Assembly: GCA_002269645.1 (NCBI GenBank)
Contig: NIVC01001310.1
Span: 62,001-126,000, forward strand
Reading direction: 5' to 3'
Length of the DNA: 64,000 nt
From: Macrostomum lignano
Lineage: Eukaryota
Positions 11,989 through 64,000 of this stretch are shown piece by piece. The position numbers and the translations under genes were made by a program. A model generated the notes under the pieces. It did no database searches, was not told where the DNA came from, and saw only the letters and a program-made list of their open reading frames with translations. Each line of letters opens with the position of its first letter. Position 1 is the stretch's first letter.

Positions 11989-13905
11989 CATGGATGAATG
12001 AATAGAATGGATTGCTATTCTGGCTCTGGCTATTTTCGTTTTTGACTCTTTTGCATCCGGTTCCCCCCCGTGCCTTTTCATTGGTTGATGATTGCCATAG
12101 ACAATTTTCGGCCTTCGCCCCTTTCTTTCGATGCACAAGCGCTAAGAACTGAGAATGTCAGTTACTTGCAGAGAATATCGAGCGCTCGATATTCTCTGGT
12201 TACTTGTTTGTCAATTGAAGTTGTTAATTGAAGCAGAGGAATGATAACAAATCCCCTGCAAATTACAACAGTAATGATTTCAGATTTTCATGTCGAGGGT
12301 GATGATGAGGGTGCGATGACAATGCTACAATAATGGATTACTGGCGATGCTTTATCTGAATTTTACTATTGGAGTTATGAAATTAGTTTTAAAGTTCTAT
12401 TTCAACACAAGTAACTTCTATTTCGCCCATCATCATCATCGAGGGAGTACCTTTGTGTGTGCATCACGCATCAAAACTTGTGGTACACGATTCTATTAAC
12501 GTACATGACAACACAGACTGTTAGAATGGTGAAATTGAGTGAAATTGGAACAGGAAAACAACACACATATACGATACCAGTAACGATGAGAACAGACTGT
12601 TAGAATGATTAAATCACATGAAATTAGAGTCGGAACACTACAGCTGCGCAACACCTTCGCCGAGGTCCTCATGGCCAATCACGCTTTCCTTTGCTGTACT
12701 CCAGCATAACTGCTTTCTAATCACCACCCCATCAATCACCAGCACCCATTCACAGCTCATCTTCGACTCTATACTGAGGTCTCGAATCTTTCCAATTGCA
12801 GTCGCCGAAACTCCGGGACTTCCGTCGGAATTGCACAACCATTTGCGGATTGTGGAAGAAGCAGGTAGCCTAATAAATCTACTCACTACTGAGTACGCCT
12901 TCGGCGAGCAATAGTGCAATCGAGCAGCAAAGGCACGCATAGCAACCGAGAATGCGCCTCGCTTTTCTTTTGTAGTATGCTGTAGCAGAATCTTGCCATT
13001 TTCTGTCAGAAAAGACCGAACGCGACTGGCGACGTCGCTGGAGATCTTAGAGCATTTCTGCAAATTTCGAACTCTTTCCATCGCAGCCCGCAGTTTGCGA
13101 TTTGCCAGCAAAAGCTGCCTGCGACTGCGCTTAAACTGCAGGATCAATTTCATCCGTTCAAATTGCATACTTTTGATAGTGCGTCTGAGCATTGCATTCC
13201 GTCTTAGCGCTTGCGCATGTTTTTGCTTTGTGACCTTTTCAGCTCTCACCGATGTTGACGATACTGGCTGCTGTTGTTGTGGAGTGCCAACTGGCTCCTC
13301 GTCAGCGAGTATCGACGGTAGGTGTTCCGGCTTTGGCACAGATCCGGGTCTTAGCCGCTTCCTGTAGGCGCCAGGCGATTGTGTTCCCTGTGTGCTAATG
13401 ATGAAGTCAGACGCCGCAAAGTGCTTCTCACACAATACTGAGCTCTTTGTCAAGACAAACTGCGGTGCCATCTTCACATTGCTCATCCATTCGGTCAGTT
13501 GAAGTGGAGATTTGACAGGAAAAGAAAAGAAGCTGATATTCACTCCAGTGTCGTCCCGCATCCCTGACTTGGATAGACATCCTAGTGCAGCACAGTAGCG
13601 CTTTGAGCCATTGGGCATGGTAGTGATCAAAGTAAAATAAGCAGTGAGTAAACAACAACAACAAGCGCAAAGAACTGATTTTATTGTAGACGAATCGACT
13701 CTCGAATCGTGCTTGTAGGTCTTCCCCCTTTATTTCAAAACACGAGCGAAAGCGCTTGTGCATCGAAAGAAAGGGGCGAAGGCCGAAAACCGTCTATGGC
13801 AATCATCAACCAATGAAAAGGCACGGGGGGGAACCGGATGCAAAAGAGTCAAAAACGAAAATAGCCAGAGCCAGAATAGCAATCCATTCTATTCATTCAT
13901 CCATG
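11989..13905 (-). mobile_element. P-superfamily (THAP) DNA transposon, internally deleted, 1917 bp
   Basis: 155-bp TIRs (11989-12143; 13751-13905) begin CATGGATGAATG and differ by 2 mismatches. Perfect 8-bp TSD GTAAGCAG at 11981-11988 and 13906-13913. The element encloses a THAP ORF. Confidence 0.95.
12638..13618 (-). CDS. Truncated THAP9/P-type transposase (THAP zinc finger, coiled coil, start of catalytic domain), 326 aa
   Basis: THAP signature C-AALG-C...FFSFP...W...LCEKHF, then a basic coiled coil, SPKAYSVV...LPASSTIRKW and VLVIDG (first catalytic Asp). Stop at 12638; the downstream sequence does not continue as transposase. Confidence 0.9.
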   Translation of the reverse strand: MPNGSKRYCAALGCLSKSGMRDDTGVNISFFSFPVKSPLQLTEWMSNVKMAPQFVLTKSSVLCEKHFAASDFIISTQGTQSPGAYRKRLRPGSVPKPEHLPSILADEEPVGTPQQQQPVSSTSVRAEKVTKQKHAQALRRNAMLRRTIKSMQFERMKLILQFKRSRRQLLLANRKLRAAMERVRNLQKCSKISSDVASRVRSFLTENGKILLQHTTKEKRGAFSVAMRAFAARLHYCSPKAYSVVSRFIRLPASSTIRKWLCNSDGSPGVSATAIGKIRDLSIESKMSCEWVLVIDGVVIRKQLCWSTAKESVIGHEDLGEGVAQL

Positions 13906-23319: not shown

Positions 23320-26300
23320 ATCTGTCTGTCTGTTTGTCTGTCTGTTTGTCTGTCTGTCTGTGTGTCTGTCTGTCGTCTCTGTCTGTCTGTCTGTGTGTCT
23401 GTCTGTCGTCTCTGTCTGTCTGCCAGTATATCAGTTTCTGTCTGTCTGTCTGTCTGCCTGTCGACGTGCAGAAACCCCAACCAAGCGCAGTGCACACCCC
23501 AATCCGCCCTCACCAGAACCCTAACGCGCAACATTCGCGAGCGCCGCGGCAAGAAGGTGGCCATCAACATTCCAGTCTACCGCGACCTCAACACCCCCGA
23601 CGGCCTGCTGGAGCCGCCAACCGAGCACACGGCCGCGGCCCTGCCCGGCCACATCTACATGGACGCCATGGGCTTCGGCATGGGCTGCTGCTGTCTGCAG
23701 ATGACTTTCCAAGCCTGCAGCATCACTGAGGCCTACCTGCTGTACGATCAGCTGACTCCGCTGAGTCCCGTGCTGCTGGCGCTCAGTGCTGCGAGTCCCG
23801 TCCATCGCGGCTGGTTGGCTGACACCGACACACGTTGGCGGGTCATCAGCGGTGCCGTTGACTGCAGAACAGACGAAGAGATGGGGCTTAAGGTTGGTTG
23901 TTTTAGTTGACCTGTTGCTTTAGGACCTTAGCTACCGTTGCTATGCTGAATTTATTCACGAAGCTGTTCCTTTGGGGTCTAAGACATTTGACTGCCGAGG
24001 GTTAGGTCTGAGTAACCGTTGCTATGGTACTTAATACAGGAGGCTAATGCCAATGGTGCTGCTGCTAGGCCGTTGCTATGCCCGGGATTCTACGCTGTTG
24101 CTATGAACAGGTTTTTAGCCCGTTGTCATGGAAAAGTTGTTAGGTCGTTGCTATGCACGAGTTATTAATCCGTTGCTATGCACGTGTTATTAGGCCGTTA
24201 CTATGGGCGGGTTGTTAGGCCGTTGCTATGCACTGGTTGTTAGGCCGTTGCTAGGCTGTTGCTAGCTTACGAGTTGTTATATGCCGTTGCTATGCACTGG
24301 TTGTTAGGCCGTTGCTAGGCTGTTGCTAGCTTACGAGTTGTTATATGCCGTTGCTATGCACGGGTGGTTAGGCCGTTGCTAGGCTGTTGCTAGCCTACGA
24401 GTTGTTATATGCCGTTGCAATGCACTGGTGATTAGGCCGTTGCTAAAGCTAGATAGTTTTATCACTTAATTCAGCAATTTCAGGTTGTCAAAATTGATTT
24501 ATTAAAATTGGGAAAACCCGCAGCCACTGGAGCGCAACCGATTTCGCATAGCCAAGAGCCGCTACGACTCAATTGACAGCTACCTGTCCGCAGACGGACA
24601 AGCCTACAATGACATACCGCTAACTATGGACGAGGACATTCTCAGACAGCTGATGGAGGCCGGCGTTGAGCCAAGCTTAAGCCGCCACTTGGCTCACCTG
24701 TTCATTCGCGATCCGGTGTCTCTGTTTTCTGAGAAGATTCATCAGAGCGACACGGAAGAGTCTGATCATTTCGAAAATATTCAATCCACTAATTGGCAAT
24801 CAATGCGGTTCAAGCCGCCGCCAACCAACTCTACTATTGGCTGGCGTGTGGAGTTCCGCTGCGCCGAAGTGCAGCTAACTGATTTTGAGAATGCCGCTTA
24901 TGTTGTCTTTATTGTACTGCTCACTAGGGTGCTGCTCACTCTGCAGATTGACCTGCTCATGCCCATCTCTAAGGTGAGATTCGTCAGTTGGGTGTGTCAG
25001 TCTCACCCTTTTCTGTGTCAGTCTCACCTGTGTCTGTGTCAATCTCACCTGTGTCTGTGTCAGTCTCACCCGTGTCTGTGTCAATCTCACCTGTGTCTGT
25101 GTCAGTCTCACCCGTGTCTGTGTCAATCTCATCCGTGTCTGTGTCAGTCTCACCTGTGTCTGTGTCAGTCTCACTCTTGGCTGTGTCAATCTCACTCTTG
25201 GCTGTGTCAATCTCACTCTTGGCTGTGTCAATTTCACTCTTGGCTGTATCAGTCTCACCCTTGTCTGTGTCAGTCTCACCCTTGTCTGTGTCAGTCTCAC
25301 CCGTGTCTGTGTCAATCTCACCTGTGTCTGTGTCAGTCTCACCCGTGTCTGTGTCAATCTCATCCGTGTCTGTGTCAGTCTCACCTGTGTCTGTGTCAGT
25401 CTCACTCTTGGCTGTGTCAATCTCACCCTTGGCTGCGTCAATCTCACTCTTGGCTGTGTCAATCTCACTCTTGGCTGTATCAGTCTCACCCGTGTCTGTG
25501 TCAGTCTCACCCGTGTCTGTGTCAGTCTCACCCGTGTCTGTGTCAGTCTCACCCTTGTCTGTGTAAGTCTCATCCTTGGCTGTATCAGTCTCACCCTAGT
25601 CTGTGTCAGTCTCACCCGTGTCTGTGTCAGTCTCACCCGTGTCTGTGTCAATCTCACCTGTGTCTGTGTCAGTCTCACCCGTGTCTGTGTCAGTCTCACC
25701 CTTGTCTGTGTCAGTCTCACCCGTGTCTGTGTCAATCTCACCTGTGTCTGTGTCAGTCTCACCCGTGTCTGTGTCAATCTCACCTGTGTCTGTGTCAGTC
25801 TCACCCGTGTCTGTGTCAATCTCATCCGTGTCTGTGTCAGTCTCACCTGTGTCTGTGTCAATCTCATCCGTGTCTGTGTCAGTCTCACCTGTGTCTGTGT
25901 CAGTCTCACTCTTGGCTGTGTCAATCTCACTCTTGGCTGTGTCAATCTCACTCTTGGCTGTGTCAATTTCACTCTTGGCTGTATCAGTCTCACCCTTGTC
26001 TGTGTCAGTCTCACCCTTGTCTGTGTCAGTCTCACCCGTGTCTGTGTCAATCTCACCTGTGTCTGTGTCAGTCTCACCCGTGTCTGTGTCAATCTCATCC
26101 GTGTCTGTGTCAGTCTCACCTGTGTCTGTGTCAGTCTCACTCTTGGCTGTGTCAATCTCACCCTTGGCTGCGTCAATCTCACTCTTGGCTGTGTCAATCT
26201 CACTCTTGGCTGTATCAGTCTCACCCTTGTCTGTGTCAGTCTCACCCGTGTCTGTGTCAGTCTCACCCGTGTCTGTGTCAGTCTCACCCTTGTCTGTGTC

Positions 26301-29300
26301 AGTCTCATCCTTGGCTGTATCAGTCTCACCCTAGTCTGTGTCAGTCTCACCCGTGTCTGTGTCAGTCTCACCCGTGTCTGTGTCAATCTCACCTGTGTCT
26401 GTGTCAGTCTCACCCGTGTCTGTGTCAGTCTCACCCTTGTCTGTGTCAGTCTCACCCGTGTCTGTGTCAATCTCACCAGTGTCTGTGTCAGTCTCACCCG
26501 TGTCTGTGTCAATCTCATCCGTGTCTGTGTCAATCTCACCTGTGTCTGTGTCAGTCTCACCCGTGTCTGTGTCAATCTCATCCGTGTCTGTGTCAGTCTC
26601 ACCTGTGTCTGTGTCAGTCTCACTCTTGGCTGTGTCAATCTCACTCTTGGCTGTATCAGTCTCACCCTTGTCTGTGTCAGTCTCACCCTTGTCTGTGTCA
26701 GTCTCACCCTTGTCTTTGTCAGTCTCACCCTTGTCTGTGTCAGTCTCACCCGTGTCTGTGTCAGTCTCACCCTTGTCTGTGTCAGTCTCATCCTTGGCTG
26801 TATCAGTCTCACCCTTGTCTGTGTCAGTCTCACTCTTGGCTGTGTCAATCTCACTCTTGGCTGCGTCAATCTCACTCTTGGCTGTGTCAATCTCACTCTT
26901 GGCTGTATCAGTCTCACCCTTGTCTGTGTCAGTCTCACCCTTGTCTGTGTCAGTCTCACCCGTGTTTGTGTCAGTCTCACCCTTGTCTGTGTCAGTCTCA
27001 TCCTTGGCTGTATCAGTCTCACCCTTGTCTGTGTCAGTCTCACCCGTGTCTGTGTCAGTCTCACCCGTGTCTGTGTCAGTCTCACCCTTGTCTGTGTCAG
27101 TCTCATCCTTGGCTGTATCAGTCTCACCTGTGTCTGTGTCAGTCTCACTCTTGGCTGTGTCAATCTCACTCTTGGCTGCGTCAATCTCACTCTTGGCTGT
27201 GTCAATCTCACTCTTGGCTGTATCAGTCTCACCCTTGTCTGTGTCAGTCTCACTCTTGGCTGTGTCAATCTCACTCTTGGCTGCGTCAATCTCACTCTTG
27301 GCTGTGTCGATCTCACTCTTGGCTGTATCAGTCTCACCCTTGTCTGTGTCAGTCTCACCCTTGTCTGTGTCAGTCTCACCCGTGTCTGTGTCAGTCTCAC
27401 CCTTGTCTGTGTCAGTCTCATCCTTGGCTGTATCAGTCTCACCTGTGTCTGTGTCAGTCTCACTCTTGGCTGTGTCAATCTCACTCTTGGCTGCGTCAAT
27501 CTCACTCTTGGCTGTGTCAATCTCACTCTTGGCTGTATCAGTCTCACCCTTGTCTGTGTCAGTCTCACCCTTGTCTGTGTCAGTCTCACCCGTGTCTGTG
27601 TCAGTCTCACCCTTGTCTGTGTCAGTCTCATCCTTGGCTGTATCAGTCTCACCCTTGTCTGTGTCAGTCTCACCCGTGTCTGTGTCAGTCTCACCCGTGT
27701 CTGTGTCAGTCTCACCTGTGTCTGTGTCAGTCTCACCCGTGTCTGTGTCAGTCTCACCCGTGTCTGTGTCAATCTCACCAGTGTCTGTGTCAGTCTCACC
27801 CGTGTCTGTGTCAGTCTCACCCGTGTCTGTGTCAGGTGTCAGTCTCACCCGTGTCTGTGTCAATCTCACCCGTGTCTGTGTCAGTCTCACCCGTGTCTGT
27901 GTCAGGTGTCAGTCTCACCCGTGTCTGTGTCAGTCTCACCCGTGTCTGTGTCAGTCTCACCCGTGTCTGTGTCAGTCTCACCCTTGTCTGTGTCAGTCTC
28001 ACCCGTGTCTGTGTCAATCTCACCCATACATGACTTAATCTCACCCGTTTATGTGTCTGTCTCATCCAGTTTAAAGTCTATCACATCCATATGCAACTAT
28101 TAAATCTCTCTCATCTATATCCAACCCATCTCACCCCAAGGTGGACGAGAACTTCAATCGAGCTCAGCAGCGTGACGCGGTGAAACGCCAGAAATTCTTC
28201 TTCCGCTCAGGCGCTCACCTGTACGACAACGACCCGGAGCTGGTCAAGGCCGAGCTGCGCGAATTCACTCTGGACGAAATTGTCAACGGCTGCCAGGACT
28301 TCCCCGGTCTGGTGCCCCTGATTCGCCAGTACCTCAGCATGAGCCACACTGATGTTGACACCATGTGCACGCTTAACCAGTATCTCAACCTTATTCAGAA
28401 GCGGGCGAGAGGTGAGTGACCTGAGGCGTTTACCTTCTTTTTCTGTGCTTCCATCTCTACCTTCTATCCATCCCTATCTACCCCCTGTCCCTCGCTCTCT
28501 ACCCCTGTCCCTCCCTCTCTACCCCCTGTCCCTCGCTCTCTACCCCCTGTCCCTCGCTCTCTACCCCTGTCCCTCCCTCTCTACCCCCTGTCCCTCGCTA
28601 TCTACCCCCTGTCCCTCCCTCTCTACCCCCTGTCCCTCGCTCTCTACCCCTGTCCCTCGCTCTCTACCCCTGTCCCTCCCTCTCTACCCCCTGTCCCTCC
28701 CTCTCTACCCCCTGTCCCTCCCTCTCTACCCCCTGTCCCTCGCTCTCTACCCCCTGTCCCTCCCTCTCTACCCCCTGTCCCTCGCTCTCTACCCCCTGTC
28801 CCTCGCTCTCTACCCCTGTCCCTCCCTCTCTACCCCCTGTCCCTCGCTCTCTACCCCTGTCCCTCCCTCTCTACCCCCTGTCCCTCGCTCTCTACCCCCT
28901 GTCCCTCGCTCTCTACCCCCTGTCCCTCGCTCTCTACCTCCTGTCCCTCGCTCTCTACCCCCTGTCCCTCCCTATCTACCCTCTGTCCCTCCCTCTCTAC
29001 CCTCTGTCCCTCCCTCTCTACCCTCTGTACCTCGCTCTCTACCCCCTCTGTCCCTCCCTATCTACCCTCTGTCCCTCCCTCTCTACCCTCTGTCCCTCCC
29101 TCTCTACCCCCTGTCCCTCCCTCTCTACTCCCTGTCCCTCGCTTTCTACCCTCTGTCCCTCCCTATCTACCCTCTGTCCCTCCCTCTCTACTCCCTGTCC
29201 CCCGCTCTCTACCCTCTGTCCCTCCCTATCTACCCTCTGTCCCTCCCTATCTACCCTCTGTCCCTCCCTCTCTACTCCCTGTCCCTCGCTCTCTACCCTC

Positions 29301-38142: not shown

Positions 38143-41100
38143 TCAGTCGGCTTTAATCTTGTTGGCCGTCCACAGCAGCGCCTTGAGTGCGTCCCACAGG
38201 CTGGCGCCGTTGAGAATGAGCTGCTTTGCCAAGCTGATGTAGCCCGCTAGAGTGGCCAGGTGGACCTGCCGGGGCAGTGTGATTGATTGGCTTGCATCAA
38301 TCGGCTTCTCTTTCTCCTCTGCTTTTGAAATTGTCACAATTTCTAACACCTTGGTGTAGATGCAGCTGCATGTAATTCTGCGACTTCTCTGTGACTCTCG
38401 CATGCGAAGCTTGTCGATCTCACTCTCTGACACCCCATTCTCTCTAAGCATCTCTAATCTCATCATCATCATCATCTCATCATCTCACATCATCTCATAC
38501 CCTCCTACACCCTCTCACACCTCATCATGTCACACCATGATACACCCCCTCTCATCATCTCACACTCTCTCACACCCTCTCATCATCTCACACCCTCTCA
38601 CATCCTTTCTCATCATCTCACACTTTCTCAAACTTCCCATCATCTCACACACTCATCATCCCACACCCTCTCTAATCATCCCACACCCTCTCTAATCATC
38701 CCACACCCTCTCTAATCATCCCACACCCTCTCTAATCACCCCGCACCCTCTCTAATCATCCCACACCCTCTCTTATCATCCCACACCCTCTCTAATCATC
38801 CCACACCCTCTCTAATCATCCCACACCCTCTCTAATCATCCCACACCCTCTCTAATCATCCCACACCCTCTCTAATCATCCCACACCCTCTCTAATCATC
38901 CCACACCCTCTCTAATCATCCCACACCCTCTCTAATCATCCCACACCCTCTCTAATCATCCCACACCCTCTCTAATCATCCCACACCCTCTCTAATCATC
39001 CCACACCCTCTCTAATCATCCCACACCCTCTCTAATCATCCCACACCCTCTCTAATCATCCCACACCCTCTCTAATCATCCCACACCCTCTCTAATCATC
39101 CCACACCCTCTCTAATCATCCCACACCCTCTCTAATCATCCCACACCCTCTCTAATCATCCCACACCCTCTCTAATCATCCCACACCCTCTCTAATCATC
39201 CCACACCCTCTCTAATCATCCCACACCCTCTCTAATCATCCCACACCCTCTCTAATCATCCCACACCCTCTCTAATCATCCCACACCCTCTCTAAGAAGC
39301 TCAACTTTTGCCAACTCTTGTGGCCGGCCCAAGAGACAATTAAAACAAAGCTCCGCGCAGACTAAGCTGAGGCCATCGACAATGTCATAAGTTTTTTAAA
39401 TCTTTAAAATGAAAATCTGAAGAAAAATGCAGATGAGCTGAGCACTCACGGGAGTCCGGCCTCGGTGGTCCCGATTGTCAAGTCTAGCGCCGCGTTTCAA
39501 CAGCAGCTGGAGGCAATCGTCGAAGCCGCGAACAGCGCACAGGTGGACCGGGGTTCGACCCTTGGAGTCGCGCGAGTCCACGGGTAGTTCGAGACTGTCG
39601 ACCAGGTAGGTGAGGGTTTCCAGGTCACCGGCTAAGCAGGCCAGGTGCACAGCCGTGTAGCCGTGGGGCCTGAGCACTGCTCTGGCGTTGGCGCCCTTGA
39701 GTCGGAGCGCTCTGCAGACTGGAAGGTGGCCGTGACGGGCAGCCAAAAGAAACGGAGTCCAGCCGTGACGGTTCAGCCTGCGTGAGGCGACGGGAGGGTT
39801 ACACTCGAATCTTCACAAACCCGAATCTTCACAAACCCGAATCTTCACAAAAAATCTTCACAATCCCGAATCTTTACAAACCCGAATCTTCACAAACCCG
39901 AATCTTCACAAACCCGAATCTTCACAAACACGATCAATCTTCACAAACCCGAATCTTCACAAACTGGAATCTTCACAAACCCGAATCTTTACAAACCCGA
40001 ATCTTTATAAACACGAATATTCACAAACTGGAATCTTCACAAACTGGGATCTTCACAAACCCGGATATTCACAAACCCGAATCTTCAAACACTATTAATC
40101 TTTACAAACCCGAATCTTCGCAAACCCGGGTCTTCACAAACCCGAATCTTCACAAAAAAATCTTCACAATCCCGAATCTTCACAAACACGAATCTTCACA
40201 AACCCGAATCTCCACAAACCCGAATCTTCACAAACCCGAATCTTCACAAACCCGAATCTTTACAAACACGAATATTCACAAACTGGAATCTTCACAAACT
40301 GGAATCTTCACAAACCCGGATATTCACAAACCCGAATCTTCACAAACACGATCAATCTTTACAAACCCGAATCTTCGCAAACCCGGGTCTTCACAAACCC
40401 GAATTTTCACAGACCCGAATCTTTACAAAACCGAATCTCCACAAACCCGAATCCTCAATAATTCGAATCTTCACAAATCCGAGTCTTCACAGACAGATAT
40501 AGATTCGAATCGTCACAAATCTGAAACTTCAGAAACCCGAAACCTTACAGACCTGAGAATATACATGATATAAATAGAAATGACAGTGGCAGTTAAAGAT
40601 GAATTCCTGAATTTACCTACTAACAATAGAAAACTAAAAAAATGAAAAACTTCTTAAAAGTCGCACAGTGAAATCTCCAGCCCAACCTGAATTATCCTAC
40701 TAACAGTAGAAATGCAAGCAAATCTCACTTATCGGGATCGGCTCCCTTCCGCATCAGCAGGGTCACCACGCTGGTGTGGCCGGCTTCCGCAGCGTAGTGC
40801 ATCGGAGTGGAGTGCCACGCCGTTCTCTCGTTAACCGACGCCCCCGAGAAGGTCAAGTACTCCACTAGCTCGTGACTGCCCAGCTGGGAGGCCACCATCA
40901 GGGGCGTCACACCCTTGGCGGTGCCCTGCGAAATGTCAGTGGACTTGGACATGAACAGCCGGGCGGCTCTGGTGTTGACCCTGTAGCAGGCGAGGTGCAG
41001 CGGCGTCACCCTGTCGTTGAAGGTGGTAGCGTTGACCGAAGCGCCGAAGCGGACCAGGTGCTGGCACACCTGCAGGTGGTCGCCCCGGACAGCTTTGTGC

Positions 41101-42378
41101 AAAGGCGTCCACCCGATGGCGTCGCAGTGGTTCACGGGGCTGTCGTGCCGGATGAGGAGCTGCGCGATGCCCAGGTGGCCGTAGCGGCTGGCGGCGTGCA
41201 GCGGCGACCAGCCGTCGACGTCGCCGTATTTGAATTTCATGCCGGAGTCAACCAGCAGCTGCACCGCCTGGATGGAGGAAGGAGTCAGAGTGTGCGGCCT
41301 GACTGCGGCTGACAGGGAGAGGCTGAGGGGGAGAGGCTGAGAAGGAGAGGCTGAGAAGGAGAGGCTGAGGGGGAGAGGCTGAGAAGGAGAGGCTGAGAAG
41401 GAGAGGCTGAGGGAGAGGCTGAGAGGGAGAGGCTGAGAAGGAGAGGCTGAGAGGGAGAGGCTGCAGGGAGAGGCTGAGAAGGAGAGGCTGAGGGAGAGGC
41501 TGAGAGGGAGAGGCTGAGAAGGAGAGGCTGAGAAGGAGAGGCTGAGAAGGAGAGGCTGAGGGAGAGGCTGAGAAGGAGAGGCTGAGGGGGAGAGGCTGAG
41601 GGAGAGGCTGAGGAGAGGCTGAGGGGGAGAGGCTGAGGGAGAGGCTGAGGGAGAGGCTGAGGGAGAGGCTGAGAGGGAGATGCTGAGGGAGAGGCTGAGA
41701 GGGAGAGGCTGAGATGGAGAGGCTGAGAGGGAGAGGCTGAGGGAGAGGCTGAGAGGGAGAGGCTGAGAAGGAGAGGCTGAGAGGGAGAGGCTGCAGGGAG
41801 AGGCTGAGAAGGAGAGGCTGAGAGGGAGAGGCTGAGGGAGAGGCTGAGAGGGAGAGGCTGAGAAGGAGAGGCTGAGAAGGAGAGGCTGAGAAGGAGAGGC
41901 TGAGAAGGAGAGGCTGAGAAGGAGAGGCTGAGAGGGAGAGGCTGAGAAGGAGAGGCTGAGGTAGAGGTAGAAGCTGATGAGGAGAGGCCGAGGAGAAACA
42001 GAGAGGCAGAAGATAAAGAGCTGATGCACAGCGGACAAGCAGCACCACTCTCCCCAGGCTCACCTCCAGATGTCCGTAGCGAGCTGCGTACCACACAGGC
42101 GCCCGTTTCCTCTCGTCCTGACCCTCCATCCAGCAGGCGGCATGGAGGAAAATCTCGAGAATGTCTCGCCTGCCCTGCCGGGCCGCCGCGTGCACCGGCG
42201 ACCACAGGTAGCGGCAGTCCGGCTCCGTCCGCTCCAGCTTGTAGGTGGCCGCCCGGCGGATGAGGTCCAGATTGTCGGCCAGGTAGCGGGTGTACTCCAG
42301 CCCGCCGCCTGGCGCGTCAATCTCCGACATCAGCTTGCTGGCCACGTCGCAGATTTTGAAGCCGTAAGTTGAGGACAT
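38143..42378 (-). CDS. Ankyrin-repeat protein; exons 42378-42064, 41267-40729, 39777-39450, 38265-38143 (434 aa)
   Basis: About 11 ankyrin repeats (WSPVHAAARQG, GWSPLHAASRYGH, GWTPLHKAVRGDH, VTPLHLACY, GYTAVHLACLAG, GRTP|VHLATLAG). GT-AG introns; exon sum of 1305 nt is in frame. Confidence 0.9.
38660..39295. repeat. Homogeneous 20-bp minisatellite (ATCATCCCACACCCTCTCTA)n, ankyrin gene intron 3
   Basis: About 31 near-identical units. Confidence 0.97.
39805..40480. repeat. 16-bp minisatellite (AAACCCGAATCTTCAC)n, ankyrin gene intron 2
   Basis: Direct inspection. Confidence 0.93.
41310..41960. repeat. 12-14-bp (GAGAGGCTGAG..)n repeat, ankyrin gene intron 1
   Basis: Direct inspection. Confidence 0.93.
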
Positions 42379-54600: not shown

Positions 54601-56426
54601 CCAACAACTGCAAATACGGAGCATTATTAGATATATATATAAGAAATTATGCTAAATAAGTTCAATGCACTGCACCACTCACTCTGGTCGCGTTGAAGCT
54701 TTTGAAAGGCCATCCGGTGAGCTTTAGAATTGAAATGCAACTCGGCCTCTTTGAACGCGTCGAAATCTGCATTGCAAACTGAGCAACGCATTTGGTATTG
54801 TTTGAGCAGTTTTTTAATCAATTGTTCTTTAGTTAGGCTGCTCAGATATTGCTCTATTGACTGCACAGTGACTGCCTGTTGCTGGGTGCCATTCTGTGCA
54901 TCAGCTGTAGCAGCAGTTTCGTCAGCAGCCGATGATGATGAGGCTTCAGTGGCACCGCCGGGAGGCTGCAGTGAGGATAGGAGAAATTTATGATCGGTAG
55001 TTCAACTGAACAGCCGTACGCAGCCTTCAGACGCGCCGCGCAATAGCTGGTTTGTTTAATTTTGATCAATACCTGATGTCTGACAGGTCACACCTGATGT
55101 CTGACAAGTCACACCTGATGTCTGACAGGTCACACCTGATGTCTGACAAGTCACACCTGCATACCTGACAGGTCATACCTGATATCTGACAGGTCACACC
55201 TGCATATCTGACGGGTCATACCTGCATGTCTGACAGGTCACACCTGATGTCTGACAGGTCACATCTGCATATCTGACAGGTCACACCTGATGTCTGACAG
55301 GTCACATCTGCATATCTGACAGGTCACACCTGCATATCTGACAAGTCACACCTGACATCTGACAGGTCTCACCTGACATCTGAAAGGTGTCACCGCTGCA
55401 TACATGACAGGTCACCTGATATCTGACAGGTCGTACCTGACATCTGACAAGTCACACCTGCATATCTGACAGGTCACACCTGACATCTGACAAGTCACAC
55501 CTGGATATCTGACAGGTCACACCTGACATTTGACAAGTCACACCTGCATATCTGACAGGTCACATCTGATATCTGACAAGTCACACCTGCATATCTGACA
55601 GGTCACACCTGATATCTGTCAGGTCACATCTGATATCTGACAAGTCACACCTGCATATCTGACAGGTCACACCTGATATCTGTCAGGTCACATCTGATAT
55701 CTGACAGGTCACACCTGACATTTGACAAGTCACACCTGCATATCTGACAGGTCACATCTGATATCTGACAAGTCACACCTGCATATCTGACAGGTCACAT
55801 CTGATATCTGACAAGTCACACCTGCATATCTGACAGGTCACACCTGACATTTGACAAGTCACACCTGCATATCTGACAGGTCACATCTGATATCTGACAA
55901 GTCACACCTGCATATCTGACAGGTCACACCTGATATCTGTCAGGTCACATCTGATATCTGACAGGTCACACCTGCATATCTGACAGGTCACACCTGATAT
56001 CTGTCAGGTCACATCTGATATCTGACAGGTCACACCTGATATCTGATAAGTCACATCTACATATCTGATAAATTAAAACACAAAATCTAAAAAATACTAC
56101 CGTAAAGTTAACAATAAACTAAAGCTACATAGCTAATTACACGGTAATAAAAGTCTGCACTCACCTTATCCTTATCCGCGGCACTCTCCGCTGCGTCCAA
56201 TCGATAGATGCCAGGTGGTAGAGCAGAATTTCCAGTTGGCGATTTCTTAGCACCGCTGCCGCCTCGGTTGAGCGCCCCAGCAGCAGCTTTGCGATGCTTG
56301 ACCCCGGCCCGATGCGATTTCATGAGCTCCGGGTGCAGTGTTAAATTGCAAATGTCGCAGTACACTTCCGGGTCTTTCGCTTCGCTTAGTTCGCGGAATT
56401 TCTGCTCCTTTTCCTTCTTGAGGTGC
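51671..56426 (-). CDS. Matrin/U1-type C2H2 zinc-finger protein (ZNF385/ZNF346/ZMAT-like), 5'-incomplete; exons 56426-56165, 54965-54683, 51867-51671
   Basis: Three fingers: CDICNLTLHPELMKSHRAGVKH, CSVCNADFDAFKEAELHFNSKAH, CEVCDIAVTSQDLMEAHLKGYRH. GT-AG junctions are phase-compatible and the stop is at 51671. Upstream exon(s) were not found in the window. Confidence 0.85.
51951..52098 (-). ncRNA. Box H/ACA snoRNA, copy 1 of 6
   Basis: Minus strand reads hairpin (TGTCCT/AGGACA lower stem, pocket, upper stem) - H box AGATTA - hairpin (GCTTC/GAAGC) - ACA+3 nt. Intronic and sense to the host gene. Confidence 0.85.
52364..52512 (-). ncRNA. Box H/ACA snoRNA, copy 2 of 6
   Basis: Same architecture, H box AGATTA, ACA at 52367-69. 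Confidence 0.85.
52696..52846 (-). ncRNA. Box H/ACA snoRNA, copy 3 of 6
   Basis: H box AAATTA, ACA at 52699-701, pairing-restoring changes in the upper stem of hairpin 2. Confidence 0.8.
52922..53315. repeat. 35-bp minisatellite between snoRNA copies 3 and 4
   Basis: (TACCCTCCACTGACACTGATACAGATTGGAATAAT)n, about 11 units. Confidence 0.95.
53415..53567 (-). ncRNA. Box H/ACA snoRNA, copy 4 of 6
   Basis: H box AGATTA, ACA at 53418-20. Confidence 0.85.
53635..54125. repeat. 31/32-bp minisatellite (GAAGGACAGGTGGGAGACAGCGGCAACTACT)n; shorter sister array at 52190-52322
   Basis: Direct inspection. Confidence 0.93.
54141..54291 (-). ncRNA. Box H/ACA snoRNA, copy 5 of 6 (5' lower stem degraded)
   Basis: H box and ACA are intact; the 5' end reads GTACTTCC instead of TGTCCTTCC. 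Confidence 0.7.
54325..54482 (-). ncRNA. Box H/ACA snoRNA, copy 6 of 6
   Basis: H box AGATTA, ACA at 54328-30, G-U-preserving change in the lower stem of hairpin 2 (GCTTC/GGAGC). Confidence 0.8.
55073..56070. repeat. 21/22-bp palindromic minisatellite (CTGACAGGTCACACCTGATAT)n, zinc-finger gene intron
   Basis: About 46 units, each containing the CAGGT-CAC-ACCTG inverted repeat or a variant. Confidence 0.95.
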
Positions 56427-56663
56427 CTGGCAAGCGAAAATACATAAGCAATTGAAAGTTCCATTTAAAACAAAAGAGTAGGGGTGTAGAGTGTTCTACC
56501 TCCCGTTAAAAAAGGAAAAAAGAAGATAATCGTATAATACTACTATAAGTAAGTAAGTACACGCATGTGCGCCTAAGCTTTGAATGAATCACGCTACCAG
56601 AAAAAGATGTTACCAGAATAATACGCCATGAGCCATTTTCCCCTTTTAGCGCAACACGTGAAT

Positions 56664-57348
56664 TGTCATGATACTATTTTGGATCAAAAACTTGTCTATA
56701 AATACAAGCGATCTGAAGCGGTACCGGAGCCATTCTCCCCACGGAAGAGGAGCGCTCCGAAGAGGAAGCCTTAGGAGGACTTCCTGATCTACCAAGTCAA
56801 TCGAGACTCGGTCGAGTTGTTGCGGTAAGCCTTCCTTATTTGCGCCCGTTGTGTTAGAGACGTCTCGCTCAAGTCTATTGAGACTTGAGTCTAATTGAGT
56901 CTGTTGAGACTCTTGAGTCTGTTTAGACTCCATTGGTTGCAGTCTCCAGAAGGACTGCCCCTGATAGATCTTAGAGGACTATCAGTGGTTTCCGGAGCTA
57001 TACCTAGAGTGCATAGAGGCACTGCTAGAAGAAGGAGGCTTAATTTAGACCGCAGTTTGGCGCAGGGTACCCATTGTTGCTACGAGGCCTCTGATTGGTC
57101 CTGACGGAAGATACCGGCCGGAAGAACTTATCGGAAGTACAAGAGGAACCAGGACCAGAGCAACTGAAGAATCAAGGCGCCTGATCTACGAGATCTACTG
57201 ACAAGTTCCTAGCGAGAACTACTCAAGAAATTCAAATCCGGATTAAAGGTAATTGAATACCTTCGTTTGACTTACTGGGTTGCCTAGCTGTTGAGCTAGA
57301 AGTGATTGTTCCTTGATTATCGAAAGTCGGGTAATAAGGAACACATCA
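56664..57348 (+). repeat. Candidate 5' LTR of the Gypsy element
   Basis: Starts TGTCATG (56664) and ends ...CATCA, 2 nt before a TGGTGATCTCG PBS-like tract (57351, loosely tRNA-Trp-like). The 3' LTR is outside the window, so the ends are unverified. Confidence 0.45.
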
Positions 57349-58064
57349 ATTGGTGATCTCGCCCTCTCGGCACTACTCAAACCTTGAGCAATAGCCTGGC
57401 CAAGCTATTGTAAAGTGACGACAGAGCGACTTCATTAATTTTGCGCGCACGTGTTAGAGTTAACACTTTTTAAGTCCGTTACGTTTTGAAACTCGAGTAA
57501 AATTTGGTGTACAGGTTTGAGCACCTGTCAAATTTGAGTACAGTTTGAGCACGCGTGTTAAAATTTTGTTTTGACGAGCTCGAGCAAGTGTGAGTTTAAA
57601 ACAAAACCGAAATTAACTTCGTCGGTACACTGAAAACAAACCAAAAATAAAAAGAATCGTCGACGCAAAACAAACAAAAAATAACTGAAACATTTTGCCG
57701 GCACAAAAACTAAAACAAAACCGAAATTAATTGAAACTTCGTGGAGAGCAGAGTTAATTGACAAAAGAGAGAGAGTCAAAGAAGAGAAGAAAGACTTTGC
57801 AAAGCAAGAAGACAAGTCCACTTCAACTTGAAGATACACTTTGCGGGACGCCGCATAAGTGCGAAATCAGCAAGCGAACAGAACAAGTTCATTTGAGGAC
57901 AACCAGTGGCAGCAAGCCACACCGCATCCGAGGCCAGCGAATAACAAATCGACACCACAAGGCAATTCGTTACAGTCGAGGTTTATTCCGAGGCAAACAC
58001 CACACTGGACGATCCGTTACAAATCGATCCAGATCTTGAACTACCGTTCTACCCTATCAACAAC

Positions 58065-61000
58065 ATGGCGCGGCGCAATCCAACGGTACACAGAGACATC
58101 AAAGAAACGGTCGGTACTTTCTCGATGGAGAAAGATTTTAACACATTTGTCGACCATTTTGACCTGGTATGTAGGGAATACAACCTACAAAATCCAGAGA
58201 AGGCACAGCTGCTGCCACCTCTTCTCCAAGGTACTGCGCGAGAAATTTACGGCAAGCTGGATGCGGCAACACAGCAAAATTATCCAGCACTAATCATTCA
58301 ACTGCGCGCGCATTTCAACCGTTGCGGCACAAACAGATCAGTGCTGCTGCACAAGTTGCATAACAGAAGGATGCAAGCAACAGAATCCTTCCTCGCCTTT
58401 GTGGACGATATCCGCCAGATAATTAAGGCACTGCATCAGCCACCGCTGCAAGCTGCGGACCAACCACCACTGGGAGCGGCAGAATTGGCCGCCAGAGAAA
58501 GACAACGATTGATGGATCGTGAACAAAACCTCATCCTGCACGTAATAAACAACGCACAGCCGTCACTTCGGGATAGACTTTTGCGTGAAAATATCGAAAC
58601 CGAAGAAGACCTTTTGCGTTGCGGAATGCAATGGGAAGCCAGTGCCCCATTAATGACGACAGGCAACAATGAAGTGCAGAAACTGACGCAGCAACTAAAC
58701 AAGTTAATGCAGCACCAGACAGCTGCTATCGCCGAACAAAAAAGACGAAATGAACAAGCCTCAGCCAGATGTTACTACTGCGGACAAGAAGGACATTATC
58801 AGATTAATTGTCCTCATTGGTCAACAAGATACGACAAGCCGCGACAGATATTCAACAATCAGAAGCCGCAGAAACCATGGCAGCACTATCAAAATCGCCA
58901 ACAACAAGGAATGAGACGCTTCGGAAATGATAGACGCTTCGGAAATAATGACCGCTCCGGAAATGATGGCCGCTTCGGAAACGAAGGCCGCTTCAGAAGT
59001 AATGGCTACAGGCCACGCAACGTCAGATACACACAAAGACAGCCGACGCAAGCAATGCCACGATACGCGAATGCCATCACGTACACACCGGAAAATGAAC
59101 AGCAAGAACAGCAAGTGTTCACAATTGACGACTTGGAAATGGACTTCACAGTCCCGGAACTTGACATCAGCTTGATCGAAAAGAAGACGACGCACGAGGA
59201 CAACACTGACAACACAGAAGAGACGAATGAAACCGAAATGATCAAATTAAAAGAGACCACCGGAGACAGCAGAGAAAACAGGAAGAAAGTAAATCACAAG
59301 ACAAGGGAGGAGGCGGAGAGCGACATCGGCAACGAAGAAAAGATGAAAACCGGCGAAGAAAACAACTATGAATCGACAACAGTGGATGACGACAAAACGA
59401 GCATGAAAGACAAAGAAATGAAAGAAGAAGAAGAATGTAGAAGTTACGGCAACGACCACGACTGCGAGGTGCGTGATGACACGAACGACTACCAAGCCGA
59501 AAGAGGAATGCAGGAAGAACCGAGAGCGGAGAATCTAAGTTCCGACAGCGATCAAGGCTACGAAATACAATGGAAAGATGAAGAAATGGAAAAAGAACAG
59601 GTGAAAGAAAAGCCGAGTTCCGACAGCGACGAATGCTACGAGATCCGATACAAACGAAATGGTGAAGCCTATATTCAAACGGTCGACTACAAGACAGAGA
59701 AAAGATACCAAACGCAATGGAGTGAAACAACGGAAACATCGGAAGAAGCCGCAGACGAAGATAATGAAATAACCAAAAAGCAAAGCGAATCAGAAGCCTT
59801 CCGCCTGGATCAGCCAATGGAACAACCGAAAGAATATGATGCGGACATGGAAGATAACGAATGGCGATCGCAGCCAATGCCAGCAAGGACAACGGCAAAA
59901 TCCAAGAAGTGGAAAAACTGGCTATTCTGGATCATCGTGATACTACTGATAGCAGTAGTCGCCAAAGCAACGGCAACGGAAAAGCCAATGATTTGTCCAA
60001 CGGATGCGCATATCCAACCGATGATCTACAAGATACCAACCGACATCAAATGCAGTTACTTCAAGACAAACCAGACAAAACCAAAGAAGATTACACTCGA
60101 TCTCTACAAGGCTAACATCAAGAAGCATCGACAACACGGGATAGTATGCTTCAGAGACAAGCACCTGGTGGAAAAAGTTTGGCGCGGACAATGGAACCGG
60201 ATCCGATTTAAACAACATGAGCTACATGTGTCGCACGCGGAATGCCTACAATGGAATCAAACACTATTTTCAAAGGATGGTGAACTGGAACCAGATGAGA
60301 AGGTCGGCAACGCACAGCTGTTCAGAACAAAGAATTCAGCCAACGGTCGATATATTCACTTCTTCGGAAAATGGAAAGAATATATGGCACGCAACAGCTA
60401 CTTGATCAGAAATATTCCATTCTACTACAATCCGTACGAGAAAATGGAATCGTTACAGCTGCAACTAAGCGAATGTCGATACAGTGAAGGATGGTGTCCA
60501 ACGCCGATTCTACGGAAGGAAGAACTACACAGTCTACCACTGAGTCCAACATATCATCAAGACTATCGATGGCAGATTGAGCACAGAGCACAATCACACT
60601 ATGAGGAACCGTACAAATCACGACAATACTTCTTCGCGTGGGAAGTTGAGCCGGAAATTGACTGCAAGCTTCAAAAGTATCACACAGTTGAAGGAGGACT
60701 ACTGTCAAATACGTTTTTGGCAAAGTCAGGAGACTTGGCACTGACGTTTCAAAAGAAACCAGTCGAGCAAAAACTGAAATGCAAGGATACAGACAAGACA
60801 CTATTCATCTCGGAACAAGAGATACCAGTCTACGTAAAGGATGAAGACAAACAAACCTTCTTGGCAATCATCAATGGAACGTATCAGCAACAAGAAAAAC
60901 AGAATAGAAGACGACGTGACATCGAACGTCCCAAACTGGTGTCAAACCGGCTGTTGTCAGCAAAGATAACGGCTTTGGATCACAATCTACACAACCAGTT

Positions 61001-64000
61001 AAACCACTTGCATCGAACACTGGTCCAGCTAACTTGCAAAATGCACGCAATCAACTTAAATTATGCCAGACAAAACTACTATGTCAACCCTACGATGACT
61101 TTTCGTAAAATCACCGGAATGACGAACGTTTTGGCAGTTCCAATATACGAGCATCTGTTGATATACAAGTGCACGCCGATACAGCACTTTAACATCTTGC
61201 CGTCAAACACGTCAACAACCTGCTACGATAAGCCAAGGATTGAAGCGTTCTACGAAGGAAAACGAATTCAGGGATTCTTGGACACGGTACACAACATCAT
61301 CGTTGGCACCGCAATACCGAGACCTTGCACCACGGCAGTAAACTACTATCAACTGGACAATGCACTACACGTCATCAAAACAACTGGAACGACAGCAAAC
61401 GTCACAGAACCGGAAGTAATCGTCGACGAAAACTACGACATGGAGGATTTGAAAATCCGATTCAACAGAACGAAGTATACGCCATTCGCCGATATCCAAC
61501 TTGACGAGATAACACCAGGATGGACGATCAACGACTTCTTGCAAGCGTTCATCACCCAACGCAAGATGATTCACCAGCTGTTCACAAGAAAGGACAAAGG
61601 AACCGGGACAGGAAGATTTCCCGTCCTTGTTTCAATGGACAGCGCCATCAAATCATTTTGGACAAATAGCTTCTGGGAGCTGCTCAATGGAAGAGGCAGT
61701 CTCTATCAAGGATTCATCTTCTACGGTGCTTGCATTGTGTGGATTGTCACGGCAATCTTCATCATTTCATCGATCGTACGGTGCTTCAGTCAAACTTGTC
61801 CAAGAGCTAAGAAGACAGTGAATGCCATAATGCAAAGAACGACAACGGAAAGCGACAACAGTTTAGAACTAACAGAAACTGCACATTGTGAGGTTCAAGG
61901 GCAACCGACACTAGCAACGCGGCTATATCCATCGATTCCGACAACACCAACGGCACCAAGGATACAACCACCCAACTATCAAGCAGAACAGCACGAGCCA
62001 AAATGGCCGGAAAACTACGTCTGTACGCTACACGCCGAGATTGGCAAAGCAATGGCTCAGGTCATTGTCAACAACTTGCCATGTCGAGCACTACTGGATT
62101 CAGGCAGCTCGATCACAGTCATCTCGCAACAATTATGCAACAAGCTACGACTCGCGGTACGACCAGCAGCAATCGCAGTTGCAGGAGCAGGAGGACATTC
62201 ACTCAACATCCTAGGAAAAGCAGATATCGACTTGAAAATTGCTAATAAACAGCTGACGGTCCCGACGTACATCATCGACAGACTACCAAACCAAGACGTC
62301 ATCGTTGGAATCGACACGTTCAAGCAGCTTCAACTACCATTGACCTTCGACTTCAACAAGCAAACGTTTAGGATCGACACGGTGGAGCAACCGCTGATCA
62401 ACCAGATTCGAGTACTACCGAAAGTAACTCTGCAGCAAGATGTCATTATCCAGCCTGAAAGCGCATGCTGGGTCAGAGCGAAAACGACCAGCGCGGCAGA
62501 TGAAGCAATGATATTTGATCCACACAGGAGAGTCACGGCAAAACATCAAATCATGATGCCTACGGCACTAGTGCTGGTTGCAAAGGATAAGCAACTGCCA
62601 GTACAAATCTTCAACCCGAACACAGAAACGGTTCATCTACGACAAGGAATGTGCATCGGTCATCTCAACACCCAAGCATCGGTTATGCTGATTGAACAAG
62701 CGACTCCACGACTAACAGAGGAAGAATTTCAAAAGAAGATCAATTTGGATGACAGCCCGATTACGGAACAGCAAAAGAGGAAAGTTCGACAGCTGTTGTG
62801 GAAGTACAACGAAGCCTTCTGCCATCATGATTACGACATCGGACGAGCCAAGGACATCAAACAGGAAATCAAACTTCTGCCGCACACGGAACCAATTCAG
62901 TGCAAGCCGTACCCGATCGCCAAGCATCTGCAACAACACTTTGACGAAATCATCGATAAAATGCTAAAGCACGGCATCATCAGCAAAGCTATTTCGGCTT
63001 ACTCCTCACCGTGCCTACTGGTACAGAAGAAGGAGACAAACGAAAGACGACTCGTATGCGACTTCAGACTGTTGAACAAGTACATACCGACGGATCAGCA
63101 AAGCCTACCGAAGATCTCCGAACTACTAGCAAAGCTCAACACGGCAAAATTGTTCACGGTGTTCGACCTACGTCATGGATTTTGGCAAATTGAAATCGAG
63201 AAAGAGTCACGACAGTACACGGCTTTCAAAACCTACAATGGACAAGTATACGAGTACAATCGATCGCCGATGGGACTTAGCAACAGCCCAGCAACGATGA
63301 GTCGACTAACAGCATACATGCTAGCAGGATGCACGAACCTGCTGCACTATGTCGACGACATTTTAGCCTACGGAGAGGATTTCGAGCGACTCTACGAAGC
63401 TACGGAGAAGGCCCTAGCGCTCATTCAACGCCAAGGTCTGAAGCTACAACCAACTAAATGCAAATTCTTCCGAGACAACGTGCGTTACCTGGGACATCAG
63501 GTGACAGCCAAAGGAATCTCACCGGACCCAGACAACGTGGAAAAGGTGAAGAAGTTTCCTACGCCAACCAGTATAACGAAGGTCCAATCATTCCTTGGAC
63601 TTGCGCAATACTTCAGGAAGTTCTTACCTAACTTCGCAAAGACAGCAAAGCCACTGTACGACCTGCTCAAGTTCGACAAATGGAAGCAAGACAACTGGAC
63701 ACAGAGACAACAGGAAAGTTTCGACGAAATCAAACGACAGCTGACATCAGACGCACTGCTACAGCATCCGGACTTCGACAAGCCCTTCATCATCGAGACA
63801 GACGCCTCAGGAACGGGACTCGGAGCAGTCCTACTACAGGAAACCGAGGACAAGAAGGAACGACCTATTGCTACGTCAGTCGAGCACTCAAACCAAATGA
63901 AACAAAGTGGTCAGCTACGGAACGAGAGCTACTAGGAGTCTTGTTCGCCCTGCGACAGTTTCATTACTACATCTATGGTTCTCCAATACAGACGATAGTA
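58065..64000 (+). CDS. Gag-Env-PR-RT-RNase H polyprotein (single frame to ~63869, then a 1-nt shift continuing YVSRAL...ERELLGVLFAL)
   Basis: CYYCGQEGHYQINC (58770); signal/TM WLFWIIVILLIAVVAKATA (59919); furin-like RRRR (60906); TM GFIFYGACIVWIVTAIFIISSIV (61710); ALLDSGSS (62097); RRLVCDFRLLN, DLRHGFWQI, PMGLSNSPA, YVDD (63348); ETDASGTGLGAVL (63801). Confidence 0.95.

Follow-up and report, generated by a model that had tools for sequence, protein, structure and literature searches.

Can a retrotransposon carry its signals for leaving the cell on the tail of its fusogen? The question is raised by 64,000 nucleotides (nt) of Macrostomum lignano DNA (GenBank assembly GCA_002269645.1, contig NIVC01001310.1, positions 62,001 to 126,000 of the forward strand), here called the window, in which one long reading frame of a retroelement joins Gag, an envelope protein (Env) and Pol enzymes. 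Between the Env membrane anchor and the protease this frame contains three short motifs that resemble late domains, the peptides through which budding viruses recruit the ESCRT machinery (endosomal sorting complexes required for transport). Late domains are listed in Gag, matrix and capsid proteins, and multiplicity and interchangeability are among their known traits (PMC8402826, in the sections available). Our best reading of the sequence comparisons is that the motifs would recruit ESCRT to the Env tail within a Gag-Env polyprotein, and we put the probability that they are working late domains for particle release at about 0.58. The features on which the argument turns are these:

61710..61781, + strand: Env membrane anchor, the second hydrophobic segment, amino acids (aa) 1256-79 (hydropathy up to 2.43)
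61782..62018, + strand: cytoplasmic Env tail or Env-protease linker, about 79 aa, placed between anchor and protease
61923..61937, + strand: LYPSI, ALIX-type late-domain-like motif (non-strict), aa1327-31, from its sequence pattern
61947..61958, + strand: PTAP, TSG101-type late-domain motif, aa1335-38, an exact P(T/S)AP
61968..61979, + strand: PPNY, NEDD4/WW-type late-domain motif, aa1342-45, an exact PPxY
62019..62342, + strand: aspartic protease (PF13650, PF13975, PF00077), with DSG at 62097-62105 (aa1385)

The original prediction had placed the three motifs within 19 residues between the Env anchor and the protease, and that is where they lie: the cluster spans aa1327-45, between the second hydrophobic segment and the protease DSG. 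PTAP and PPNY are the sole P[TS]AP and PPxY in the whole 1996-codon frame, and the element's Gag thus has neither. When the 86-aa tail was shuffled 200,000 times, P[TS]AP together with PPxY arose in 0.04% of cases and all three motifs in 0.002%. As a lone sighting the cluster is modest evidence; it is raised above chance because relatives conserve the motifs. A YPAL in Gag (aa113) was set aside as a candidate late domain; it lies in the capsid region, where sister families also have a YP but not the motif around it.

Whether the motifs persist while the linker around them drifts had been left by the original prediction to comparison with relatives, and they do so in close copies, in diverged families and in a newly found clade. 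The family is young (among 40 scored matches, 26 are at 100% identity, one at 99% and 13 at 93%), and the three motifs are present in all 30 loci read. In a set of 42 close copies, 37 of them distinct over the region and all related to one another, we counted variants found in at least two copies. Recurrent amino-acid change touches none of the 10 key motif residues, as against 26 of the 64 other tail residues (Fisher p=0.012), and silent variation occurs at six of the 10 key motif codons; in PPxY the fixed letters are kept and only x varies (N, T, G or I). The 38 copies that are ungapped in the block all retain PPxY and the YP motif ([LM]YP[SL]I), with PTAP in 37, and of the four gapped copies one has all three motifs, two have an in-frame YP motif and PTAP, and the last shows none. 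A public gene model of the same family, P0002, lacks exactly the motif block, probably as an artefact of gene prediction. The pattern of substitutions indicates that the motifs are under selection in close copies while the linker drifts.

More diverged lineages of the same genome keep the motif types in other arrangements. A family at about 62% Env identity has the order reversed, PTAP then IYPKI, and has no PPxY in its tail. At 23-29% Env identity, some tails contain only PSAP, others PSAP together with LYPTL or IYPTI, others only LYPKI, and that of L089 no motif. Across the six own-genome lineages besides the query, P[TS]AP is found in four (0.19 expected) and [LIM]YPx[LI] in three (0.04 expected), with tail PPxY in none. 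Families without a tail PPxY, as at about 62% identity, bear a PPPY or PPAY in the Gag-Env linker instead (L072, L073, L075, L077 and L078), on what would be the cytoplasmic face of the first hydrophobic segment.

Relatives from other sources extend the trait beyond this genome. From 73 homologues we obtained 35 usable tails, eight of which were positioned manually. The set excludes rows that stop short of the anchor or in which no anchor was called (including P0005, which has PSAP), the same-genome rows P0002 (block missing) and P0004 (block present), and seven doubtful or very short tails, none showing a motif. These 35 tails hold P[TS]AP in five cases (0.29 expected), PPxY in three (0.87) and the YP motif in two (0.19). 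In the 42 proteins that include the query, the 4,000 tail residues hold 10 instances of P[TS]AP (0.72 expected under local shuffling) versus five in the other 48,931, and six of the YP motif versus one in the rest; strict YP forms found in relatives are LYPTL, LYPKL, IYPSL, IYPDL and LYPNL. An anagram control over 41 tails counted PTAP four times and PSAP five times and every other letter order at most once, except TAPP and SAPP (three each), which can overlap P[TS]APP. Searches of other kinds added nothing further: no relatives emerged by locus search among 79 metagenome and 26 viral candidates, phage records gave no match, and word-index protein searches with the Env profile returned own-family proteins only.

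A fair test came from a later search with P0027, which gave six new relatives at 41-67% identity. One stops right after the anchor, and the other five tails read PTAP..LYPNL, PSAP..IYPSL, PSAP..IYPDL, PPPY..IYPRL and PPPY..IYPTL. The YP motif is thus present in five of six (0.04 expected), and in all five complete tails P[TS]AP (three) or PPPY (two) stands immediately before [LI]YPxL; P[TS]AP and PPxY replace one another ahead of the YP motif. The proteins of this clade are Gag-Env, with frames that stop after the tail and equal lengths in many cluster members; since the frame stops there, the motifs end the structural protein and are not part of Pol. In the clade of P0027 and P0081-P0085, this stop implies that Pol is made through a frameshift, by read-through or from a separate frame. 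An Env tree of 49 rows, built by a quick method with the careful search unfinished, places all own-genome rows in one clade, in which nine of 10 rows have a motif (support 98), and shows a second clade with a motif in eight of nine (support 100). The trait is strong in two clades and sporadic elsewhere, and so not universal, and among the three motifs P[TS]AP and the YP motif are strongly conserved and PPxY much less so.

Thirteen gypsy loci without an Env match served as controls, and neither P[TS]AP nor a YP motif was found in their Gag frames or before their protease. The same 13 loci, which are distant (35-38% reverse transcriptase identity where scored), give no support to an ancestral p6-like Gag peptide displaced by the insertion of Env. 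On the side of the host, the genome encodes a TSG101 UEV domain, an ALIX V domain and WW domains; in TSG101, nine of the 12 PTAP-contacting residues named in the available part of PMC7650771 are identical, and R64K is among those that differ.

The element itself is laid out as follows, the anchor, tail motifs and protease having been given above:

56485..57348, + strand: 5' long terminal repeat (LTR), TG...CA, about 864 nt; its ends were read in the sequence, and loose contig ends pile up at 57346-57348
57351..57362, + strand: primer-binding site (PBS), whose reverse complement is the PBS listed for Mlig_errantivirus_2
57945..63935, + strand: single open frame Gag-Env-protease-reverse transcriptase-RNase H, 1996 codons, first ATG at 58065
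58770..58811, + strand: Gag CCHC zinc knuckle (PF00098)
59922..59978, + strand: first hydrophobic segment (hydropathy), with basic residues N-terminal to it; putative internal signal or anchor between Gag and Env
59979..61709, + strand: Env ectodomain, 576 aa, a class III fusogen of the herpes simplex virus glycoprotein B (gB) type, from a profile match and predicted fold
63024..63503, + strand: reverse transcriptase core (PF00078, E 4.4e-28)

The Env profile (38 sequences) matches gammaherpesvirus gB at E 1e-17, and an AlphaFold model of Env (mean predicted local distance difference test score, pLDDT, 76.9) finds herpes gB by Foldseek at E 4.7e-22. A search of the PDB with the single Env sequence gave nothing (best E 0.67), and profile and fold alone revealed the likeness; leads from the ESM Atlas (at most 0.90) are consistent with it, although we set them aside as evidence. 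On these models a class III gB-like Env sits between Gag and Pol. The ectodomain has six N-glycosylation sequons and a furin-like RRRR at 60906-60917. Two hydrophobic segments with basic flanks and sequons in between, as read from hydropathy, support a topology in which the tail lies on the cytoplasmic side of Env. The location that the original prediction gave is to that extent supported, but the same stretch also runs in frame into the protease and is thus more than an Env tail. Pol has the order protease, reverse transcriptase, RNase H, integrase, which the window shows up to RNase H, the integrase being read in a sibling copy; in the window copy the frame is broken within RNase H, around 63870-63880, and the RNase H matches are split over two frames. 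Contigs from four runs guessed to be RNA span the element, with no joint across the tail listed, and say nothing on transcription or splicing.

The element belongs very probably to an already known family. Chary and Hayashi (PMC13524379) describe GAG-ENV-POL errantiviruses with gB-type Env in flatworms, nematodes and bryozoans, and the available part of their data contains the entry Platyhelminthes_Rhabditophora_Mlig_errantivirus_2, for which 16 copies are given, together with an LTR of 863 nt and the PBS of the window element. We assign the window element to this family because gene order, Env class, LTR length (about 864 nt here, from the 5' LTR, the 3' LTR lying beyond the window), PBS and the 16 identical copies agree; what is added here is the motifs of the tail. 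One sister family carries a name from Macrostomum lignano, and the genome has at least seven Gag-Env-Pol lineages with gB-type Env versus one entry for the named species in the table of PMC13524379, as far as that table was available. A long acidic low-complexity linker of about 250 aa (59150-59900) separates the zinc-knuckle region from the first hydrophobic segment and is shorter in sister families, and just after the zinc knuckle (58917-59006) four repeats of an 18-nt period encode an RFG-rich stretch, possibly RNA-binding. Env ectodomains of sister families (L079, L080 and L083) measure 805-855 aa; that of L080 is longer through a mucin-like insert, rich in Thr and Pro, upstream of the furin-like site.

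How might such a tail act? We propose that late domains can be carried on the Env tail because Gag and Env are made from one frame. The first hydrophobic segment would thread the ectodomain into the endoplasmic reticulum while Gag stays on the cytoplasmic face, and the second would return the chain to the cytoplasm, so that Gag and Env tail would be supplied 1:1 at the same membrane; the tail could then do the job that p6 or p9 does for retroviral Gag. The partners would be TSG101 (ESCRT-I) for PTAP, ALIX for the YP motif and a NEDD4-type ligase for PPxY, and an enveloped particle would pinch off at the plasma membrane or into endosomes. Less securely, the protease may later cut at its own N-terminus and at the following site, which would free a motif peptide of about 65 aa and leave Env short-tailed:

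61818..61829, + strand: VNAI, putative site at which the element's protease would cut, 13 residues past the anchor

Around VNAI (aa1291-97) the 42 close copies show no recurrent amino-acid change, with silent variation in five of the seven codons. In a sibling copy with a longer frame, VNAI is found again at the junction of RNase H and integrase, and VNAV follows the zinc knuckle of an env-less element. VNAI may therefore be a site of the element's own protease, trimming the Env tail and releasing the motif peptide. A loose pattern, drawn up afterwards, is found in 16 of 47 tails (4.4 expected) and is a lead only. A Trp-Pro pair (62001-62009 in the window) is seen again in distant families a short way ahead of the protease or of the end of the tail, also in frames that stop there.

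Several observations weigh against working late domains. LYPSI ends in I and therefore fails the strict (L)YPx(n)L or LYPx(1-3)L form; of the late-domain classes originally assigned, the exact PTAP and exact PPxY stand and the strict ALIX-type class does not. The pattern [LIM]YPx[LI] was chosen after the first data had been viewed, so that only the clade of the later P0027 search tests it fairly. PPxY is barely enriched in the tails of the 42 proteins (four, 1.65 expected, versus four in the rest), and it is the least specific of the motifs because it is present in Gag frames of seven of the 13 env-less gypsy loci. Outside the two motif-rich clades only five of 30 tree rows have any motif, L089 has none despite coming from the same genome, and one copy of the family at 62% identity reads PNAP. 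Conservation in the close copies, which are related, covers the whole block aa1327-45 beyond the motif letters (three of 19 residues vary). Local shuffling of six-frame translations of the window brings P[TS]AP within 25 aa of PPxY in 19 of 200 cases, and our enrichment baselines were shuffled tails, the rest of the same proteins and env-less loci. Finally, two changes at contact residues of the host TSG101 (Y63H and F142V) touch the proposed partner itself.

If the motifs bind ESCRT and NEDD4-type proteins, they could still be trafficking signals that sort Env or an Env-Pol precursor to multivesicular bodies, exosomes or lysosomes. They would then keep down the amount of fusogen at the surface or load it onto host vesicles, with no part in virion scission. 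We regard this as unlikely, although it is the rival to be taken most seriously, as all the conservation evidence fits it equally well and 25 of the 30 distant relatives do without motifs. The E-cadherin tail has a P(S/T)AP that recruits Tsg101 for exosome loading (PMC9511404, as far as available), and particles of ZAM are reported on endosome and exosome routes (PMC3383448, in part). Since a membrane protein of the ordinary kind can thus be sorted to exosomes by ESCRT through a P(S/T)AP in its tail, the motifs are not the independent support for enveloped particles that the original prediction saw in them. What favours particle release over sorting is that two or three late-domain classes, clustered and swapping with one another, form a typical viral pattern (PMC8402826, available sections), and that Gag of this element offers neither P[TS]AP nor PPxY for a budding role.

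Tyr-Pro and Trp-Pro are cut sites of the retroviral type, and the block might be selected for protease processing, or for another partner than ESCRT, with the YP motif and the nearby WP marking the Env/Pol boundary. Release of the protease requires a cut in the linker, many tails have a WP close ahead of the protease or of their own end (20 WP listed for 47 tails), and the whole 19-residue block is conserved. Yet processing leaves unexplained both the enrichment of P[TS]AP and the exchange of PPPY for PSAP; moreover, the distance of the YP motif from the protease varies, the motif is still there in frames that end with the tail, and env-less elements have no YP motif before their protease, all of which makes this account improbable. 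Still less credible is that the motifs are chance matches in a proline-rich disordered linker, kept by descent alone. The 19 of 200 shuffled windows and the near-background frequency of PPxY speak for chance, but the anagram control favours PTAP and PSAP over other letter orders, the P[TS]AP excess outlasts local shuffling (10 against 0.72), and the motifs are kept across long branches in two clades. For P[TS]AP and the YP motif, these results largely refute chance; for PPxY the enrichment stays near background.

Read as late domains, the motifs take a position with precedents. Lentiviral p6 sits before Pol, a position matched by a tail that runs in frame into the protease, and like p6 and the p9 of equine infectious anaemia virus (EIAV), the motifs here end the structural polyprotein. 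Unlike retroviral late domains, which lie in Gag after the nucleocapsid, they follow the Env anchor, the YP motif of the window ends in I, and they are known here from sequence. The R peptide of murine leukaemia virus (MLV) Env is a short tail piece without late domains that the protease removes after budding; the VNAI site would allow such trimming of an Env tail, although cleavage is here a prediction. The NS3 protein of bluetongue virus has PSAP/PPxY motifs on the cytoplasmic part of a membrane protein, as here, but it is a non-structural protein of a non-enveloped virus and not a Gag-fused fusogen. In Ebola VP40 and the matrix proteins of filo-, rhabdo- and arenaviruses, PTAP and PPxY stand a few residues apart, as in the window. 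Human immunodeficiency virus 1 p6 (PTAP and YPXnL), EIAV p9 (YPXL) and MLV (PSAP, LYPAL and PPPY) have the same clustered and interchangeable classes, and in filo-, rhabdo- and arenaviruses these are on matrix proteins, as opposed to the fusogen tail here (both PMC8402826, available sections). E-cadherin resembles the window element in bearing its P(S/T)AP on the cytoplasmic part of a membrane protein, but as a host exosome cargo and not a Gag-fused fusogen (PMC9511404, in part).

Elsewhere in the window are features apart from this element:

288-1151, + strand: RNase H frame of another retroelement
12638-13729, - strand: frame resembling THAP and P-element transposase
24506-28033, + strand: glutamate-cysteine ligase exon running into a long repeat
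40725-42059, - strand: ankyrin-repeat frame
55055-56124: 21/43-nt tandem satellite, directly upstream of the element

Element and motif types were thus known, and the conserved placement of the motifs on an Env tail is apparently undescribed in the literature available to us. The main text of PMC13524379, to the extent accessible and with figures outside the search, has no match for late domain, ESCRT, budding, cytoplasmic tail or PPxY, and the full-text literature searched, whose coverage mostly excludes subscription journals, yielded no description of a retrotransposon whose Env tail bears late domains. In the available text of a 2012 review (PMC3383448), ESCRT use by errantiviruses is called unknown and only a Gag sorting motif is mentioned, and the 2026 survey (PMC13524379, likewise in part) states that the extent of infectivity mediated by these Env proteins remains unclear. 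We offer tentatively, as something possible rather than probable, the wider idea that non-insect invertebrate Gag-Env(-Pol) errantiviruses have a budding route undescribed for retroelements. The fusogen tail, supplied 1:1 with membrane-tethered Gag, would be the ESCRT adaptor, the late-domain peptide would be clipped off by the element's own protease as a maturation switch, and late domains, fusogen tail and p6-like spacer would form one module in at least two separate clades.

The motifs offer a short, peptide-testable handle on the ESCRT-dependent release of env-carrying retrotransposons of invertebrates. They also suggest why the order Gag-Env-Pol works, in that one polyprotein gives anchor, fusogen and budding signals in a fixed ratio. 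If this is true, the range of late domains extends beyond capsid and matrix proteins to a fusogen, and metazoan retroelements may long have left cells in an ESCRT-dependent way.
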